From a virus (taxonomy: Duplodnaviria; Caudoviricetes): a stretch of DNA of 56,735 nucleotides. The translations under genes and the position numbers were made by a program. The notes under the pieces were generated by a model that worked only from the letters and a program-made list of their open reading frames with translations, was not told where the DNA came from and did no database searches. Below, piece by piece: positions 128 to 53,140 of the stretch. How positions within the stretch are numbered: the first letter of the stretch is position 1; every line of letters starts with the position of its first letter. The stretch covers positions 1 through 56,735 of IMG/VR virus record IMGVR_UViG_3300027869_000003, one strand, 5' to 3'.

Positions 128-588
128 CGAAGGTTAGCGAGTTCCGCTTCCAACTTCGCCATGTCATCGCCCGGCGCCGGCGCGTCGAGCGCATCGCCGA
201 GTTCCCGACGCAGGCGCACCGCCGACCATTTCGGATCGGCGGGGATGCCCAGGTTCCGCGCCCGCTGAATCAGGCCCTGGCGTTCGTCCTCCATCTGCGC
301 GGACGTCTTGCCGCCGGACAGAACGCGCTCTTCCTCTTCCTCGGAATTGACGATGATATCCTCGAAAACCTCTTTCCTCTCCGTCCAGGTGATCGAGCGC
401 TTGTCACACGTCTCCGTATGGCGCTCGACCTCCTGGACGCCGCGCGACAGCCGCACCATCCTCGGATACTCGTGGTAGACGTAGTCCGCCGCGAGCGTGC
501 CGGCTTCCTGCATTTTCGCGAGAGCGGCCTGAAAGACGCCGCCCTGCATCAAAAAGTTGGTCTGCGCTCGTGATGTGCTGCCGCTCAT
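1..588 (-). CDS. Hypothetical virion-module protein (5' part; ~217 aa in total, continues across the join to 56543)
   Basis: ATG at 588 overlaps the HNH stop (ATGA); MSGSTSRAQ... is in frame with MAAMQAEIE of ORF 56543..56731; not in the ORF track because it wraps. Confidence 0.85.
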   Translation of the reverse strand, partial: MSGSTSRAQTNFLMQGGVFQAALAKMQEAGTLAADYVYHEYPRMVRLSRGVQEVERHTETCDKRSITWTERKEVFEDIIVNSEEEEERVLSGGKTSAQMEDERQGLIQRARNLGIPADPKWSAVRLRRELGDALDAPAPGDDMAKLEAELANLRKMAAMQAEIEALRAQVARPAVSEADEVEELRAQLTALGVEFH

Positions 589-1109
589 TGGGGCTCCTGT
601 TTTGTCCTGGCGAACTCGCCAAATGCCGCGCGTGCGGCGGTTTCATAGGCTGCGGCAGCTTCTTCTGACGTGCCGAAGTAGCCAAGTTTTATGGCCTTGT
701 AATTCACGCAAATCTTGGCGAGCCATTTCTTGCGATCCGGCGCCCATGTGACGCCTTTGATGCCTGACTTGCTCTGCTTACGCGCCACTGAGTTGCTGCA
801 ATTCTGCGAATTCGTGGCCTCGCGGAGATTGGCGATGCGGTTGTCTGTTCGATCCCGATTGATGTGGTCGATGTAATCGGGAACAGGAGAACCGTACACG
901 TAAAACCACGCGAGTCTGGCTGCTCGATAGATGGTCCTGTCAAACGCTACGTAGTGATATCCATCCTTATACGTCCCGCCCGCTTCAGCGCCGGCCAACG
1001 CCCTTGCGCCGACCTTCTTGTTCCATGTGAAAATTCCGGTGTCAGGATCGTAAGATAGGAGTTCCATTAGCCTGTCGCGGTTGGGCATGTTAGCCCTGTA
1101 GTCAGCCAT
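585..1109 (-). CDS. HNH homing endonuclease with C-terminal AP2 domain
   Basis: LSYDPDTGIFTW, IDHINRDRTDNRIANLR (HNH), GIKGV..W.A.I....LGYF...EEAAAAY (AP2); start taken at ATGGCTGAC after a GAGGA RBS. Confidence 0.9.
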   Translation of the reverse strand: MADYRANMPNRDRLMELLSYDPDTGIFTWNKKVGARALAGAEAGGTYKDGYHYVAFDRTIYRAARLAWFYVYGSPVPDYIDHINRDRTDNRIANLREATNSQNCSNSVARKQSKSGIKGVTWAPDRKKWLAKICVNYKAIKLGYFGTSEEAAAAYETAARAAFGEFARTKQEPQ

Positions 1110-1199
1110 AGCCTGTGTCCTCAGGTGAAAGGTTAGGGGCGCGGCCAGCACGCCAATGCTGGCCTGTCCCGAACCTAACAAACCCTGAGAATGTGTCAA
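1110..1199 (-). promoter_or_regulatory. Putative promoter (TTGACA) plus structured leader of the HNH gene
   Basis: TTGACA at 1199-1194; hairpin GGCCAGCA/TGCTGGCC 1143-1164; CCCTAACC; architecture shared with 50552-50648. Confidence 0.6.
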
Positions 1200-1218: not shown

Positions 1219-2424
1219 TCAAACAATATCGGGGATTACGACGGCCCATTCAGGCCGCATCCAAAGAACTCCCCAAACAACGTCGAGCCTTGTGCCAGTA
1301 ACGCCGGTCCCGATGATGTATTGTCTCGTCATCAACATTGACACACCATCCAACTCATGTCGAGCGGCTTCCACATTTGGCGGAATTTCGAGGTCTGCCG
1401 TCGCCATCGTTATTGCATCGGGGGTGAACGCAATATTTTTCCTATATACCGCGCTCGCGGGCGACACCAGCGTGATGACCGCGCTGTTGGCGGGCGAAAT
1501 ATCCACCGTCTGATACTGCACATCCTGGCCACCGCTCGCCGGGATCAGCGGCGGATAGATGCTCAGCGACGTGCCGCCGCTCGCCACGTCCGCGAGGACG
1601 ACGAACTGGCGCAACTGGCCGTAGGACTGCTTCTCGATCCGGTTCACACCGTTGACGGAGGCGAACGTGATGATGTCGCCCTTTTTCAGCGTGCCAGTAA
1701 TCGCGTTCGTCGTGATCGTGGTGCCGGTCTGGCTCGCGCCGTTGACGGTGCCGGCGGAGAACGTGCCCGCCGTGTGCATCAACACGGTCTGATCTTTCAG
1801 CCAGTCGAAACCGAGCGCGTTTTTCACAGCGCCGCTACGATACTGCTCGCTGATATCCGCGGACGGGTTGAACAGGCCGGACAACGCGCCTGCGATGCGA
1901 GCGTCGGTGAATGGGTTCACCACGAGGCGGTGGTTCATCATCGGCGCCGACTGCGTGTCGAGGATCGCGTTCGCCGTCAGGATCGTGTTGACGGACGGCG
2001 AGATGATCGCGCCGGCGGCCTCGTTGTCGACGTAATTACAAACGCCGCCTTCGGCGCCGCTCATGATGCCCACCGCGACTTTGCCGGCCAGATTGTTGAC
2101 GGCCGGAGCGATGTAGCGTTCCGCGAAGTCGTCGACCTGCAACGTCAGTTCGATCTGCGGGAACGACATGCCGACGTTGTTCTGCGTCGCGAGCGTCAGG
2201 GTGATGCTGTTCTCAACGGTGTCCTGGAATGACACGGACTGCCCGGTGCCGACGGTGAAATCGACCGGCAAGCGGATACGCAGCGATGAGCCGATCTTGG
2301 CGCCGGTGCGGGCGTATTGGTCATCGTACTGAGTTGAGATGTTACGCATGAAAGCGTTTGTGTTCTTCCAAAGTCGAACGGCGACTCGGGTCACGAGATC
2401 GATAGTCAAAAGTTTGTCGGCCAC
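1219..2424 (-). CDS. Major capsid protein, P22 coat (gp5) family
   Basis: 401 aa; AKIGSSLRIRLP, DDFAERYIAPAVNNLA, TRLDVVWG..RPEW typical of P22-type coats; follows the scaffold; GGAG RBS. Confidence 0.92.
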   Translation of the reverse strand: MADKLLTIDLVTRVAVRLWKNTNAFMRNISTQYDDQYARTGAKIGSSLRIRLPVDFTVGTGQSVSFQDTVENSITLTLATQNNVGMSFPQIELTLQVDDFAERYIAPAVNNLAGKVAVGIMSGAEGGVCNYVDNEAAGAIISPSVNTILTANAILDTQSAPMMNHRLVVNPFTDARIAGALSGLFNPSADISEQYRSGAVKNALGFDWLKDQTVLMHTAGTFSAGTVNGASQTGTTITTNAITGTLKKGDIITFASVNGVNRIEKQSYGQLRQFVVLADVASGGTSLSIYPPLIPASGGQDVQYQTVDISPANSAVITLVSPASAVYRKNIAFTPDAITMATADLEIPPNVEAARHELDGVSMLMTRQYIIGTGVTGTRLDVVWGVLWMRPEWAVVIPDIV

Positions 2425-20075: not shown

Positions 20076-20126
20076 TTGACATCGCGTTAGCGGTTGTTTA
20101 TACAATCGAGCAGATACAATGTCAAT
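20076..20126. promoter_or_regulatory. Overlapping face-to-face promoters with ATACAAT direct repeats
   Basis: Minus strand TTGACA-17-TATAAA toward the AAA gene; plus strand TTGACA-17-TATACA toward the RHH gene; ATACAAT at 20100 and 20117. Confidence 0.7.
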
Positions 20127-48881: not shown

Positions 48882-50537
48882 TTAGAAACACGGGATGTAG
48901 CGGACGGTGCCGGCGGCGTTTTTAACGGTCAGCCATTCCTGAACCGTCGTGTGCGAGCCGGCCGGCCCGAGGTTCGTCATCGCCGTGGCGACAGAACCGT
49001 TCGCCGCGATCATGCCGGAACCGACACGCACCGGGCCACCGGCCGGCTGCAAATACAGTTCCGTCAGCGCCGTCCACGTCACATTGAACGTCGCCAACCC
49101 GTTGCCCGATCCACCCGTGGTCGAAACCGTGGCCGGGGCACCGCCGCCAAACCAGAATGGCTCTTTGCCGACGAGATAATGCGCGGTCAGGATATTGCCC
49201 GACCCGTTGACGGTATCGACATTGATGATGCCGCCCAACCCGTCATAAAGTTGATCATTGACCTGATACGCGGCGCCGATGACGATCACCGCCCCAAGCG
49301 CGCCCTTCGATCCAGTCACGTCGATCTGCGCGCCGGTCGCGTTGGCCGCGAGCGCCGCCGGGCCTATGTCGATCTCGGGAATGCCCTTGAGGCGCAACCC
49401 GGGCGAACGCATCACGCTGTTGGAGAAATTGACCCGGCTGAAGTCAAACCCGCCCGCCGCCGCCATCGGCATACGCTGCGCCAGTCCGGGATTATTGTTG
49501 ATCTGTGCGTAGGTGTTGACGATCCAGCCAGTCGTCGGATCAATCGGCCACTGACCGCCGGGCGTGCCGAGAAGCAGCCCCGTGTTGACGCTGGTCGATC
49601 CACTCGCGGCGAACATATGCAAATAGGACTCATAATCCACCGCGTGATTGCCGGACGTATTCGTGGCGATCATGCCGATGATGTTGTAGGCATTGATCGT
49701 CGTGCCGGCGACGCGCTGAATGCCGCACTCGATCCCCTCGACATTGGCCCAACCAACGGCCCCCGCCGCCTGGTTGATGTAAATGCCGACGCCGACGCTG
49801 TTGGACTGATTACTCACGCGATGCGCGAGGTTCTGCGTTACCTGGAGCGTGTTAAAAAACCGTGTCTGCCCGTCAGGGTCCAGCGTGTCAGAGGTCTGCG
49901 TCTGGCTGATGGTCATCGCGCCGATCGAACCCTTGCTCCCGCCGAAGTTCGTCTGAACCTTGAACGGCATGAACGGATCAGGCGCGGCGGTGTTGTCGAT
50001 GTTGTTGGAGTTCACGCCGAACAGCCACACCGATCCATCCACGGCGCCCATTGTCCCGGTCACTGTCTGGCCAGGGATAAAGACCGCTTGCGTGGTCGCG
50101 TCCGTCACCGATGCCGGTGTCCATGTCCGCGTGTTCGTGGGGATCGTAAGACGCGACAATGATGCGGCGTTGTTTGTGGTCAGGCCGATACCCGCGGCGC
50201 CGCTCCCGATCCCGAACACCGTGTTGCCCGTGAAACCCCCGCTCGCGGTGAGGACGCCGGATAACGTGTGATTGCCAGCGAACGTGCCGGTGAACGTGCC
50301 ACCGGCCAGCGTGGTCGTGCCGCTCACATTCAGCGTCGAATTGATGACAAGCGGCCCGGTCAGCGTCCCGCCGATCAGCGGCAGGTAGGTATTTCCTGAC
50401 GTGCCAAGAAACTGCCCGATCGTCGCCTTTCGCGTTGTCGCGGTGCCGGGAATGTTCGGCGTGCCGCCCTGGTCGAGAGCGATCAGGTCGTTGACCGAAA
50501 CCGACGCGGCGGCGGGAAGTCCGTCAAGGTACGGCAT
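48882..50537 (-). CDS. Tail fibre/receptor-binding-like protein
   Basis: LPAA..V...DLI..DQ..TRKAT, YLPLIGGTLTGPL, C-terminal ANGSVAT...VQEWL...RYIPCF. Confidence 0.75.
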   Translation of the reverse strand: MPYLDGLPAAASVSVNDLIALDQGGTPNIPGTATTRKATIGQFLGTSGNTYLPLIGGTLTGPLVINSTLNVSGTTTLAGGTFTGTFAGNHTLSGVLTASGGFTGNTVFGIGSGAAGIGLTTNNAASLSRLTIPTNTRTWTPASVTDATTQAVFIPGQTVTGTMGAVDGSVWLFGVNSNNIDNTAAPDPFMPFKVQTNFGGSKGSIGAMTISQTQTSDTLDPDGQTRFFNTLQVTQNLAHRVSNQSNSVGVGIYINQAAGAVGWANVEGIECGIQRVAGTTINAYNIIGMIATNTSGNHAVDYESYLHMFAASGSTSVNTGLLLGTPGGQWPIDPTTGWIVNTYAQINNNPGLAQRMPMAAAGGFDFSRVNFSNSVMRSPGLRLKGIPEIDIGPAALAANATGAQIDVTGSKGALGAVIVIGAAYQVNDQLYDGLGGIINVDTVNGSGNILTAHYLVGKEPFWFGGGAPATVSTTGGSGNGLATFNVTWTALTELYLQPAGGPVRVGSGMIAANGSVATAMTNLGPAGSHTTVQEWLTVKNAAGTVRYIPCF

Positions 50538-50551
50538 TAGGTTGTAATCCC

Positions 50552-50648
50552 TTGACAAGGCCCAACGATTTCAGGATTATGACGGACAGACGCGGCGTTA
50601 TCAGCACCGCGTCCACCCTGACCACCATCGCTCGGCAAGGAGCAGATC
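50552..50648 (+). promoter_or_regulatory. Promoter (TTGACA-17-GATTAT) plus structured leader of the GIY-YIG gene
   Basis: Hairpin GACGCGG/CCGCGTC 50589-50613, CCCTGACC, RBS hairpin GCTC/GAGC; architecture shared with 1110-1199. Confidence 0.65.
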
Positions 50649-51557
50649 ATGGCTGACACCATCATCTCAGGCATTTACCGGATACGCAATACGGTGAATG
50701 GACGTTGTTATATCGGTTCCTCCATGAGGATACAGCGTAGATGGCACGCCCACAGAACCTCTCTTAGAGGTAACAAGCATCATTCCGTTGCTCTGCAAAG
50801 AGCATGGAATAAGTATGGCGAACCCACGTTCATCTTCGAGATCGTTGAGGCCGTTCCCGACAAACATAATCTGATCGACCGAGAACAACATTGGATTAAC
50901 CATCATAGTAGCGCGTCCGGTCATGGATATAACTCGTCTCCTACAGCCGGAAGTCCTCTTGGCGTTAAACATTCAGAAGCCAGCAAGGCAAAATCACGAC
51001 TAACTCGGTCAACGCCAGAGTTCAAGGCCGCGTGGAGTGCTAAAATGCGCGGTCGAAAACACACACCAGAAGCGCTGGCGATATTTCGGGAGGCAATGAG
51101 GAAGCCTGAGTATTTGGCGAAAAGAAAGGCATGGGCCGCAGGCCGTAAGATGCCAAAAGAAGCCCTTGCCAAGGCGATAGAAGCAAACCGCAAACGAAGT
51201 ATTTCAGATGAACACAAGAAGCGATTAATAGACGCCAGGATTGCTTTCGGCACACCAGATGCTACTCGCGAAAAAATGCGAAAGTCCCACCTGGGGAAAA
51301 AGCATACCCCTGAACATATAGCTAAAACGGCGGCTGCAAATCGGGGTAAAATCAGATCACCAGAAATAAGACAAAAGCTTCGCGTTGCCCAAAGCCAAGT
51401 GGTCCTATCGGATGAGGAAAGAAGGAGACGTAGCAAGGTCTTTCTCTCCATCATGAAAGACCCTGCCACACGAGCGAAAATGTCGGCCACGCGCAAGGCG
51501 ATGGGAGCGGAGAAGCGAGCGATACAGAACAAAGGACAAGGCGAGTTCTCATTCTAA
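50649..51557 (+). CDS. GIY-YIG homing endonuclease with NUMOD3 repeats, antisense in the tail operon
   Basis: SGIYRI.N...CYIGSS, LQRAWNKYG, REQHWI, GYN; GVKHSE/GRKHTPE/GKKHTPE repeats. Confidence 0.92.
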   Translation: MADTIISGIYRIRNTVNGRCYIGSSMRIQRRWHAHRTSLRGNKHHSVALQRAWNKYGEPTFIFEIVEAVPDKHNLIDREQHWINHHSSASGHGYNSSPTAGSPLGVKHSEASKAKSRLTRSTPEFKAAWSAKMRGRKHTPEALAIFREAMRKPEYLAKRKAWAAGRKMPKEALAKAIEANRKRSISDEHKKRLIDARIAFGTPDATREKMRKSHLGKKHTPEHIAKTAAANRGKIRSPEIRQKLRVAQSQVVLSDEERRRRSKVFLSIMKDPATRAKMSATRKAMGAEKRAIQNKGQGEFSF

Positions 51558-53140
51558 TTCTCAATTAAAATTGGGGGAGGATCCAAAAACGCGCCTTGTA
51601 TCGCGAACCTACCAGGGAGGACCCCGTAGATTTCGAAGATTCTATCTCTTGCCCTTCCGCAACGATTCCACTGTGGCTGCGCGCGGTAATTCCCCATTTC
51701 CCCAAGCGATTGCGGCAATGGATTGCCGAACGTGCGGCCCCGGTCATCGCTCCACCGCAGGTAAATCAGCGGCGCGGTCGCCGGTAGCGGCGCGGGCCCG
51801 GCCAAAAGCGCATCCTCGAACACGCCAGCATCGATCGACGGTGCCGCGTTGACGCCGCTCGCCCCGGTCAGCAGCGGAAACGGGCCGGGCGGATCAATCG
51901 TCCCAAGCCCCGTGGCGGCCTCCACATCGAGCGTGAAGCCGGGATAGATCACCTGCTTGCCGTCGCCCACCATGTGCGGGAAGCCGCGCCTGTAGTGGAT
52001 CGGAGCGCCCGCGTCGGTATGGTTCTCCGGGTCGAGCGCGTAGAGTTCTCCCGTCTCCCAATCCGCGACCACGTTCTTGCCGTAAGCGAAGGCGGAACAC
52101 GCCGCCCGGTGCCGATGCTCGACGCCGTTCACGTCCGACCACATCGGCTCATGCCACTGATCCGGCACCGTCTCGTCCCACCGCCAGGACCGATCCGCGC
52201 TCGGGAAATTGATCTGATAGAACGTGTGCCCGGCCTGCTGGAATGTGAACGCCTCCGCGTCGCTCACCTGGGGATATTTCGCCATCGCCGTTTCAAGCGC
52301 GAAATTACTGATCCGCTTGGCGTCATAGCCTTCCGTGCGGACCACGATGGCCTGGCCGTTCTGGTCCTGCGACAGCCAGAAAATCGCGCCATTCGCCTGC
52401 GCGACCGACGATTTCGCGATGCAACCGTGCTGCGCGAACGGTCCAGGCATGATCTGGAACGGGAAATCGGCGGCGCCGGCGTCAAACCAGACTTCCGATG
52501 TGCGCTCGCCGATCAGCCAGATTTCCCGCTTCGTGACGCAAATGCTGACCAGATTGTCGCTGTATCCATTCTTGGCGGCGAAAAACAGCGCGTCGAATTT
52601 CATCTCGTTGAGATACGTGCTGTAAAAGTTCCGCGTGCCGGGCTGGTTCAGCACGATGAACCCGTCGATGATGTCCACCCGGTCGGCACCGTAGAACGCG
52701 AACACCGCGCCCGCCACCGGCGGATCTGGCGAGTTGTTCGTCGAGTTGATGGGACTGAAGGCGTTCGTGGTGAGATCGACCTGATATCCTTGATCCGAGC
52801 CATCCACCAGGATCAGCGTCGTGCCGTTGTCCGCCATACTCACGCGGCCAATCGTGGTGCCGATCGCGCCAAGCCGCGTCAGAACCCAATCCTTGGACAC
52901 GCTGAACACCGTCGAGCCGGCGGCGTAATAAAGCGTGCCGTTGTTGGCCCAATACAGGCCGCGACCGGCGGCGGCGCGCGGCGGTTTGACGAGAGAGGTC
53001 AGGCCAGGGCAACCGTAGTATGTGAACGGGGCCGGGGCGCTCTCCGGGTTTTTTTCGCCGTAGAGATTCACCGATCGCACCGCTGACGCGATGACGCTGC
53101 GCGCTTCGTATGCGCCACCAGAGAGGACGACTCTCGGCAT
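51554..53140 (-). CDS. Head-closure/tail hub protein, P22 gp10-like
   Basis: R.VNLY.E, MADNG, GERTSEVW, GCIAK.S, GHTFY.INFP, L.WSDDRGRTF, G.ARDR.FE. Confidence 0.88.
   Translation of the reverse strand: MPRVVLSGGAYEARSVIASAVRSVNLYGEKNPESAPAPFTYYGCPGLTSLVKPPRAAAGRGLYWANNGTLYYAAGSTVFSVSKDWVLTRLGAIGTTIGRVSMADNGTTLILVDGSDQGYQVDLTTNAFSPINSTNNSPDPPVAGAVFAFYGADRVDIIDGFIVLNQPGTRNFYSTYLNEMKFDALFFAAKNGYSDNLVSICVTKREIWLIGERTSEVWFDAGAADFPFQIMPGPFAQHGCIAKSSVAQANGAIFWLSQDQNGQAIVVRTEGYDAKRISNFALETAMAKYPQVSDAEAFTFQQAGHTFYQINFPSADRSWRWDETVPDQWHEPMWSDVNGVEHRHRAACSAFAYGKNVVADWETGELYALDPENHTDAGAPIHYRRGFPHMVGDGKQVIYPGFTLDVEAATGLGTIDPPGPFPLLTGASGVNAAPSIDAGVFEDALLAGPAPLPATAPLIYLRWSDDRGRTFGNPLPQSLGEMGNYRAQPQWNRCGRARDRIFEIYGVLPGRFAIQGAFLDPPPILIEN

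Follow-up and report, generated by a model that had tools for sequence, protein, structure and literature searches.

A portable promoter and hairpin cassette precedes unrelated homing endonuclease genes in uncultured soil phages and may give rise to an antisense RNA

Introduction

Homing endonucleases need enough expression to spread, but not so much that the phage carrying them suffers, and among free-standing members of this group the mode of control is known just for a few genes of the T4 type. Among the T-even phages and Aeh1, the genes for I-TevI, I-TevII, I-TevIII, segB and mobE combine a late promoter with control by an RNA hairpin, and in seg43(25) of Aeromonas phage 25 the hairpin is located upstream of a ribosome-binding site (RBS) that is not hidden (PMC2988022). 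In marine metagenomes, the genes of GIY-YIG and Vsr-like endonucleases within ‘fractured genes’ share conserved hairpin leaders (Dassa et al. 2009, PMC2677866). In cyanophage S-PM2 the antisense RNA CfrI is located in the interval that separates psbA from F-CphI, a homing endonuclease gene (Millard et al. 2010, via PMC12197685 and PMC5931967), and on the evidence of these accounts this is the only homing endonuclease locus at which we found an antisense mechanism in print. Here we describe a cassette, composed of a predicted promoter, a GC-rich hairpin and a short translation-start region, that precedes two unrelated homing endonuclease genes in the virus record IMGVR_UViG_3300027869_000003 (Caudoviricetes), the whole 56,735 nucleotides (nt) of which were analysed and are called the window below.

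In IS10 (pIN and pOUT, with RNA-OUT) and in symE with SymR, two promoters face each other at the 5′ end of a gene whose product is a potentially harmful DNA enzyme, and in both systems a short, stably folded antisense RNA extends over the Shine-Dalgarno (SD) sequence and the AUG. The cassette resembles these systems in its facing promoter-like motifs and its stable, conserved antisense fold, with the difference that its transcripts are predicted ones. It has no sequence relation to either system, and the match to SymR on the antisense strand of the GIY-YIG copy falls far below threshold (20.2 bits versus 61, E value 0.084). Antisense control of restriction-modification genes is covered in a review (PMC3874152).

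Like the T-even and Aeh1 genes, those described here are free-standing nuclease genes that carry their own promoter and a stable leader hairpin, with the promoter in or beside the hairpin, and, like seg43(25), they have the hairpin upstream of an exposed RBS (PMC2988022). Unlike in the T-even phages, the predicted promoters are of the host sigma-70 type (TTGACA-16/17-TAGGTT or GATTAT, TGnTAnnnT) rather than T4 late TATAAATA, the pairing is conserved on the opposite strand, and the phages have a P22-type coat protein and derive from soil metagenomes. The leaders of Dassa et al. offer a similar picture of unrelated endonuclease families headed by a 5′ hairpin that has conserved motifs and a promoter embedded in it, and the 3′ end of their nuclease genes also overlaps the start of the next gene, as it does here at 585-588. 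Those leaders differ from ours in sequence, in having a T4-late promoter element and in belonging to other phage groups, and the passages of that report that describe them mention neither a strand analysis nor an antisense promoter (PMC2677866). CfrI, as summarized in the two later papers, is likewise an antisense RNA at the junction of a phage gene and a free-standing homing endonuclease gene (expressed in S-PM2, predicted here), yet it is presented there as a single locus in a T4-like cyanophage and not as a portable cassette common to unrelated nucleases. A full-text search of the literature returned no description of the cassette, nor of any antisense cassette common to unrelated homing endonucleases.

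Results and discussion

Two leaders with the same ordered parts

The two leaders represent one ~95-bp control cassette, a portable unit that accompanies free-standing homing endonuclease genes in a group of uncultured soil phages. One copy (1086-1199, minus strand) heads an HNH_3+AP2 gene (585-1109, minus strand, 174 amino acids), and the other (50552-50672, plus strand) heads a GIY-YIG gene with an additional weak NUMOD3 match (50649-51557, plus strand, 302 amino acids). Both genes were assigned by Pfam and by the HNH/homing-endonuclease PHROGs. Along the gene, the cassette consists of a predicted sigma-70-type promoter, a two-part GC-rich hairpin that begins 1-4 nt further on, the motif CT[A/G]ACC(A), a 4-bp mini-hairpin that presents the SD sequence in its loop, and an ATGGCT start. 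Every element that an earlier sequence-only reading of this DNA had listed for the two leaders was found in place and in the same order.

In the HNH-AP2 copy, whose parts lie on the minus strand, the -35 hexamer TTGACA (1194-1199), which is kept in the orthologous cassettes L023 and L030, is followed after a 16-nt spacer by the putative extended -10 element TGtTAGGTT (1172-1180), which includes TTAGG (1178-1174). The two-part hairpin (1136-1170) overlaps GGACAG (1169-1164) and is formed by an outer helix, in which GGG (1170-1168) pairs with CCC(C) (1139-1136), and an inner helix, in which GGCCAGCA (1164-1157) pairs with TGCTGGCC (1150-1143) across a loop at 1156-1151. Its internal loop consists, on the gene strand, of A·C mismatches that become G·U pairs on the plus strand. 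The stretch CCCTAACC (1138-1131) includes TAACC (1131-1135) of the near-invariant CT[A/G]ACC(A), directly 3′ of the hairpin. The mini-hairpin CCTG-AGGACA-CAGG (1112-1125) holds the SD sequence GAGGA in and at its loop, and the gene starts with ATGGCTGAC (1101-1109). Facing back toward these parts, the extended -10-like motif TGtTAGCCC is located on the plus strand (1088-1096), in codons 5-8 and 10 nt from the CAT.

The plus-strand GIY-YIG copy has the putative promoter TTGACA-17-GATTAT (50552-50580), which reaches 10/12 matches in the promoter scan, with TTGACA at 50552-50557 and TCAGG at 50571-50575. Its hairpin (50584-50618) begins with GGACAG (50584-50589) and pairs GG (50584-50585) with CC (50617-50618) in the outer helix and GACGCGG (50589-50595) with CCGCGTC (50607-50613) in the inner helix, around a loop at 50596-50606; three A·C-type mismatches on the gene strand become G·U on the minus strand. 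The stretch CCCTGACC (50616-50623) includes TGACC (50619-50623) of the CT[A/G]ACC(A) motif, the mini-hairpin GCTC-GGCAAG-GAGC (50630-50643) surrounds the SD sequence AAGGAG, and the gene start ATGGCTGAC (50649-50657) is identical to that of the HNH-AP2 gene. The back-facing extended -10-like motif is TGaGATGAT on the minus strand (50661-50669), in codons 5-7 and 9 nt from the CAT.

Across all cassettes, CT[A/G]ACC(A) is present 3′ of the hairpin nearly without exception. The ATGGCT start is kept in 13 of 14 distinct cassettes, and codon 2 is GCT in the same proportion despite the GC-rich genomes. The antisense-strand alignment also shows a conserved word rich in G and U, GGTGGTYAG, which is complementary to CTRACCACC, just before the big hairpin at columns ~31-39.

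Distribution and associated genes

A covariance model (R1) was trained on four leaders, with the GIY-YIG copy left out. It matches that copy at an E value of 0.044 in 298 kb, as well as the untrained copy in L021 and further copies in L050 and L065 (L numbers are our handles for loci). Six of 31 related viral records scanned whole contain a match, and more cassettes were matched among 80 loci collected for relatives of the HNH protein of L048, L050 and L065. A second model (R2), built from 16 leaders, matches exactly the two known copies on the gene strand of the window and nothing else. Taking both models together, 24 gene-strand rows reach an E value of 1.5e-5 or lower, comprising the two window copies and 22 in other viral or metagenome contigs, and the cassette accordingly has the further homologues that a covariance-model search was expected to reveal.

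Nuclease genes lie downstream in 22 of the 24 rows, an association that is partly built in because most loci were retrieved with nuclease queries. The genes belong to several families (HNH_3+AP2, GIY-YIG, PHROG-374 HNH, Pfam HNH/HNH_5 and endonuclease-VII-like HNH), in agreement with the proposal that unrelated nucleases share the cassette. A less biased sample is given by the coat-related contigs, in which a nuclease gene, read by eye, is directly downstream of each gene-strand match (window, L023, L030, L048, L050 and L065). Two exceptions count, with the retrieval bias, against an exclusive link to nucleases: the open reading frames (ORFs) downstream of L072:135-228 (minus strand; partial ORF) and L073:843-935 (minus strand; 117 amino acids, no family) have no nuclease match, and these copies show no recognisable promoter upstream. 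They keep the hairpin, CTAACC, the SD hairpin and ATGGCT, and may represent a module that serves other genes too, or remnants.

L072 (a clear homologue) and L073 (a likely one) were the two contigs recovered by a pattern scan of metagenomes with the 3′ half of the cassette. The same half gave three and then four contigs in viral scans, all already known, and a pattern with the GIY-type stem gave three viral contigs. The sole match in a bacterial genome, the Terriglobia metagenome-assembled genome L075, has no hairpin and only a 32-amino-acid ORF, and was taken as chance. A blastn comparison of three leaders with 50,697 phage records yielded chance-level matches (E values 0.3-1) or none.

The entire leader is kept in two contigs whose HNH-AP2 genes are 82-87% identical to that of the window (L002/L023 and L003/L030). 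The GIY-type stem also heads a 37%-identical HNH_3+AP2 gene (L006/L007) and a PHROG-374 HNH gene (L021). The site that follows the coat gene is variable across 35 contigs with related coat genes: it is empty in, for example, L043 and L032-L037, where a terminator-like hairpin or a short spacer is present, it is filled by cassette plus HNH gene in L023, L030 and L048, and it is filled by other nuclease genes with different leaders in L024-L029 and L031. Because this site can be either empty or filled, the promoter and leader belong to the inserted unit. The post-coat site is a hotspot, and the other HNH genes that fill it in L024-L029 (~20-110 nt after the coat stop) and L031 have their own TTGACT-type promoter.

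The cassette corresponds to no characterised Rfam family. Rfam 15 gave no match in the whole window at the gathering score, only far-sub-threshold matches in the two leaders at E values up to 10, and, in 12 related loci, only two group I introns that are located elsewhere in those loci. These introns (RF00028) lie at L083:777-1044 (60.1 bits) and L050:1103-1873 (50.2 bits), upstream of cassette-headed HNH genes, and the one in L050 is located where the coat gene region starts. In L038, L041 and L054 the coat matches extend over 1493-1667 bp rather than ~1203, so that these coat genes, too, may be interrupted. The HNH-family ORF behind the cassette at L065:1574-2200 loses similarity before the HNH motif in the alignment, and is possibly a decayed nuclease gene that retains an intact cassette.

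Covariation and strand of the fold

The two halves of the big hairpin change together. In other copies the outer helix (helix 1) GGG/CCC is replaced by GAG/CTC, GAA/TTC or GGA/TCC, the inner helix differs in sequence from copy to copy, and both sides change in 15 of the 16 tested pairs. The covariation score is 0.498, compared with 0.174 in shuffles (0 of 500 reach 0.498) and 0.09-0.15 when the partners are slid. This bears out the earlier observation that the stems differ while pairing is kept. On the antisense strand, RNAalifold finds 13 pairs, 12 of them with compensatory changes. The 4-bp stems of the SD mini-hairpin (helix 3) also differ between cassettes when the rows are read by eye, and its weak formal count (52% paired in the model alignment) arises because alignment rows are shifted by one column.

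The strand opposite the gene accommodates the conserved pairing far better than the leader strand does. On the gene strand, helices 1 and 2 contain 232 Watson-Crick cells, 41 A·C (equivalent to antisense G·U), 5 G·U and 10 others, such that standard pairs make up 94.8% on the antisense strand versus 82.3% on the gene strand. If 13 hairpins are treated as independent, the corresponding count is 32 versus 10 (p ~0.001). When folding z-scores are taken across the cassette between the -10 box and +7, all 21 cases give the lower value on the antisense strand (mean -4.88 versus -2.21), with values for the window copies of -3.62 and -3.16 antisense and -1.94 and -1.87 sense. For the hairpin region alone, the antisense strand gives the better fold by energy in 11 of 11 cases and by z-score in 8 of 9, an advantage that is partly compositional, given that this strand is G+U-rich. 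The z-scores correct for G+U composition, and the A·C-versus-G·U count is independent of it. Chance, or a plain palindrome, is ruled out as the origin of the hairpin by the covariation and the strand bias.

The candidate promoter on the gene strand

The sequence-only reading had treated TTAGG/CCTAA and TCAGG/CCTGA as a compensatory pair within the leader. T(T/C)AGG aligns with TAGGAT, TAGGCT, TAGAAT, TAAAAT and TATAAT of other cassettes, and in many cassettes this -10-like box lies 16-18 nt after a TTGACA-like hexamer. Given this alignment and spacing, T(T/C)AGG is best assigned as the predicted -10 box of a sigma-70-type promoter, and not as a stem arm of the leader RNA. The claim of compensation had to be abandoned, since the pair lies in this box and the close relatives L023 and L030 have GTAGG where the window copies have TTAGG or TCAGG.

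Under a strict test, TAnnnT occurs at most 14 nt from the hairpin in 14 of 24 rows, with TGn upstream in nine of these. The promoter scan tool called the GIY-YIG promoter and did not call that of the HNH-AP2 gene (TTGACA-16-TAGGTT), whose second hexamer has 3/6 matches. The pattern TTGACA-N12-18-TYAGG, picked post hoc after inspection, occurs twice in the window, at the two leaders only, versus 0.10 expected, and one of 100 shuffles reaches two.

The putative -10 box ends 1-4 nt before helix 1 in nearly all cassettes, and therefore a start ~7 nt downstream, as predicted, would omit the 5′ strand of this helix; T(T/C)AGG itself would lie before the point at which the gene's own transcript is predicted to start. 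Helix 1 carries most of the strand bias, and its covariation, located upstream of that start, therefore needs another RNA. The notion of a structured mRNA leader, central to the sequence-only reading, thus fares poorly: the outer hairpin and T(T/C)AGG precede the predicted mRNA, the pairing suits the opposite strand, and the leader strand is consequently probably the wrong one for most of the structure.

A possible antisense RNA and its alternatives

On the antisense strand, TA is found 9-10 nt from the CAT in 12 of 14 cassettes and, in a second count, 16 of 22, forming TGnTA in seven and eight, respectively. Elsewhere among offsets 0-49/59, nearly every position has a count of 0-1. The motif frequently takes the form TGnTAnnnT. 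Together with the strand bias of the pairing, this back-facing promoter-like motif leads us to favour an arrangement of face-to-face promoters in which a short cis-antisense RNA covers the SD sequence and AUG, ends in the large hairpin and restrains the nuclease. We judge this to be a serious possibility, though one still short of probable.

According to this proposal, the back-facing promoter would direct an antisense RNA of ~75-85 nt that starts in codons 2-3 and runs across the AUG and SD sequence. Its anti-SD would be displayed in a small loop, a placement that suits contact between loops, and the large hairpin at its end would confer stability and perhaps define the 3′ end. The gene's own transcript would start inside the 5′ arm of the hairpin, with only the perfect inner stem left at its 5′ terminus. 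Pairing of the antisense RNA with the nuclease mRNA would block ribosome binding or trigger cleavage, and so keep nuclease levels low. The suggestion of repression made in the sequence-only reading is compatible with this proposal, and the cassette plausibly restrains nuclease expression.

Several observations, in addition to the compositional share of the folding advantage, weigh against an antisense RNA. The -10-like motif of the HNH-AP2 copy is TAGCCC, which lacks the important last T, and that of the GIY-YIG copy is GATGAT. No -35 partner accompanies the antisense motif, and a stricter two-hexamer scan finds no consistent antisense promoter. Information content across codons 3-8 is low, at most ~1 bit per position, and the TA peak is partly inflated by related N-termini in the HNH family. 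In the window copies there is no U tract after the hairpin, and no terminator-like site is found on either strand at 900-1400 or 50350-50850, so these copies do not look like intrinsic terminators. Among the sequencing runs listed, the phage occurs in three soil-metagenome DNA runs, one of them its likely source, and in no RNA run. Only some of the relatives, for example L050, have a T-rich tail after the hairpin on the antisense strand (sequences read by eye).

The alternative that survives best dispenses with a second RNA. The elements could form a plain expression cassette that acts in the mRNA only, through a host-type promoter, a protective 5′ stem-loop, a C/A-rich unstructured stretch, a good SD sequence and a favourable ATG GCT, with unrelated nuclease genes coming to share it through easy recombination. 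A 5′ stem-loop is known to stabilise mRNA, and the position of the -10 box, 1-4 nt before the hairpin, places the predicted start at the foot of a perfectly paired inner stem, which is 88.9% paired on the gene strand; the conserved ATGGCT also fits. We nevertheless consider this alternative unlikely, because it leaves unexplained the covariation of helix 1 upstream of the predicted start, the 41 A·C versus 5 G·U on the gene strand, the lower antisense z-score in every one of 21 cassettes and the position-specific TGnTA in codons 5-8.

The same asymmetry bears on whether the conserved feature is DNA rather than RNA, for example an operator palindrome, a promoter-tuning cruciform, or a template-strand hairpin for recombination or priming that aids movement of the cassette. 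The palindrome abuts the -10 box, and the covariance model scores the reverse strand also. Furthermore, G·T is tolerated in hairpins of single-stranded DNA, and strand bias alone therefore cannot separate an antisense RNA from template-strand DNA. Neither duplex recognition nor a cruciform predicts the excess of A·C over G·U, however, and the stems are wholly different between cassettes, even within one genome, while the flanks are kept, which argues against a sequence-specific duplex-binding protein. No second hairpin is present at the 3′ end of the gene, as ends of the IS200/IS605 type need. We regard a DNA feature as improbable.

A low probability is also assigned to an insulator, in which the hairpin would stop or stabilise transcripts entering from the gene side and thereby shield the upstream phage gene, while outward promoter-like sites restart the phage genes. 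Such a role would be in keeping with a hairpin that is strongest on the antisense strand and with the T-rich tail seen in relatives such as L050. Outward promoter-like sites with the -35 in the hairpin do occur. In the window, CTGATA-17-CATAAT (50604-50576, minus strand) points toward the neighbouring tail gene, with its -35 in the hairpin loop and its -10 overlapping the GIY-YIG -10, and similar sites are found in L050, L021 and L048. These four are the only ones among 14 cassettes, the window copies have no U tract, and 10 of the 14 cassettes are co-directional with their neighbours (two are opposed and two unclear, read by eye), an orientation in which no incoming antisense transcription is expected.

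Control of the T4 type, for which the paradigm is described in PMC2988022, would have read-through RNA from upstream late genes hide the SD sequence and AUG, whereas own-promoter transcripts that lack the pairing strand are translated. SD/AUG accessibility was computed for nine cassettes with 80 nt of native upstream sequence and compared with 100 shuffles. It is reduced in L023 (0.18 versus 0.41 shuffled, fraction 0.04) and L030 (0.27 versus 0.42, fraction 0.06), and the spacer TTCTCAGG of the HNH-AP2 window copy is able to pair with CCTGAGGA. No effect is seen in the other seven cassettes, including both window copies (fractions 0.37 and 0.83). Unlike in the T-even genes, moreover, the big hairpin does not contain the SD sequence or RBS, and no read-through mRNA exists for the GIY-YIG copy, which runs antisense to its neighbouring genes. 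T4-type control would apply to two of the nine cassettes at best, and we hold it to be very improbable for this cassette. A layout of this kind, with the -10 box overlapped by the 5′ arm of a stem that hides the SD sequence, is evident by eye in the post-coat nuclease genes of L024-L029 and L031, which have different leaders.

The further suggestion of a nuclease-associated, guide-like RNA finds nothing in the evidence that points to it: a single hairpin is present, at the 5′ end, both genes overlap a neighbour at their 3′ ends, no Rfam match indicates IS200/IS605 ends or a HEARO/omega guide RNA, and the proteins are HNH_3+AP2 and GIY-YIG rather than IscB or TnpB.

Genomic context

The phage record is a complete viral genome of 56,735 bp with direct terminal repeats. 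No close cultured relative was found, and the regions flanking the cassettes have no close phage match. The HNH_3+AP2 gene directly follows the P22-type coat gene (1219-2424, minus strand; Pfam), is co-directional with its neighbours, and shares ATGA at 585-588 between its stop and the start of the next gene. The GIY-YIG gene is flanked by two minus-strand genes and is antisense to both, and its ORF shares four bases (51554-51557) with the converging minus-strand ORF 51554-53140. Upstream sequences differ among four relatives of the tail gene that neighbours the GIY-YIG gene, and for this reason the borders of the GIY-YIG insertion are not definable. Elsewhere in the window, the interval 20076-20125 between opposed ORFs has a perfect TTGACA hexamer on each strand, with TATA-rich -10 regions that overlap; this looks like a regulatory switch region.

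Conclusions

The distribution of the cassette indicates that control elements, and not only the nuclease genes themselves, are modular and mobile between nuclease families. If the proposed antisense mechanism is true, the cassette would be a compact natural module for limiting expression and a marker for mobile nuclease genes in metagenomes, and it would connect the control of homing endonucleases with that of transposases in a way that is open to testing. More broadly, selfish nuclease genes of unrelated lineages may each have gained a swappable, self-contained ‘brake’, in which two promoters that face each other and an antisense RNA ending in a hairpin are packed into the first 100 bases of the gene, the first codons included. 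We hold this wider interpretation to be possible, if rather unlikely. Were it true, throttling by antisense RNA would amount to a general design principle of free-standing homing endonucleases that has yet to be named, comparable in rank to the way antisense RNAs control transposases.

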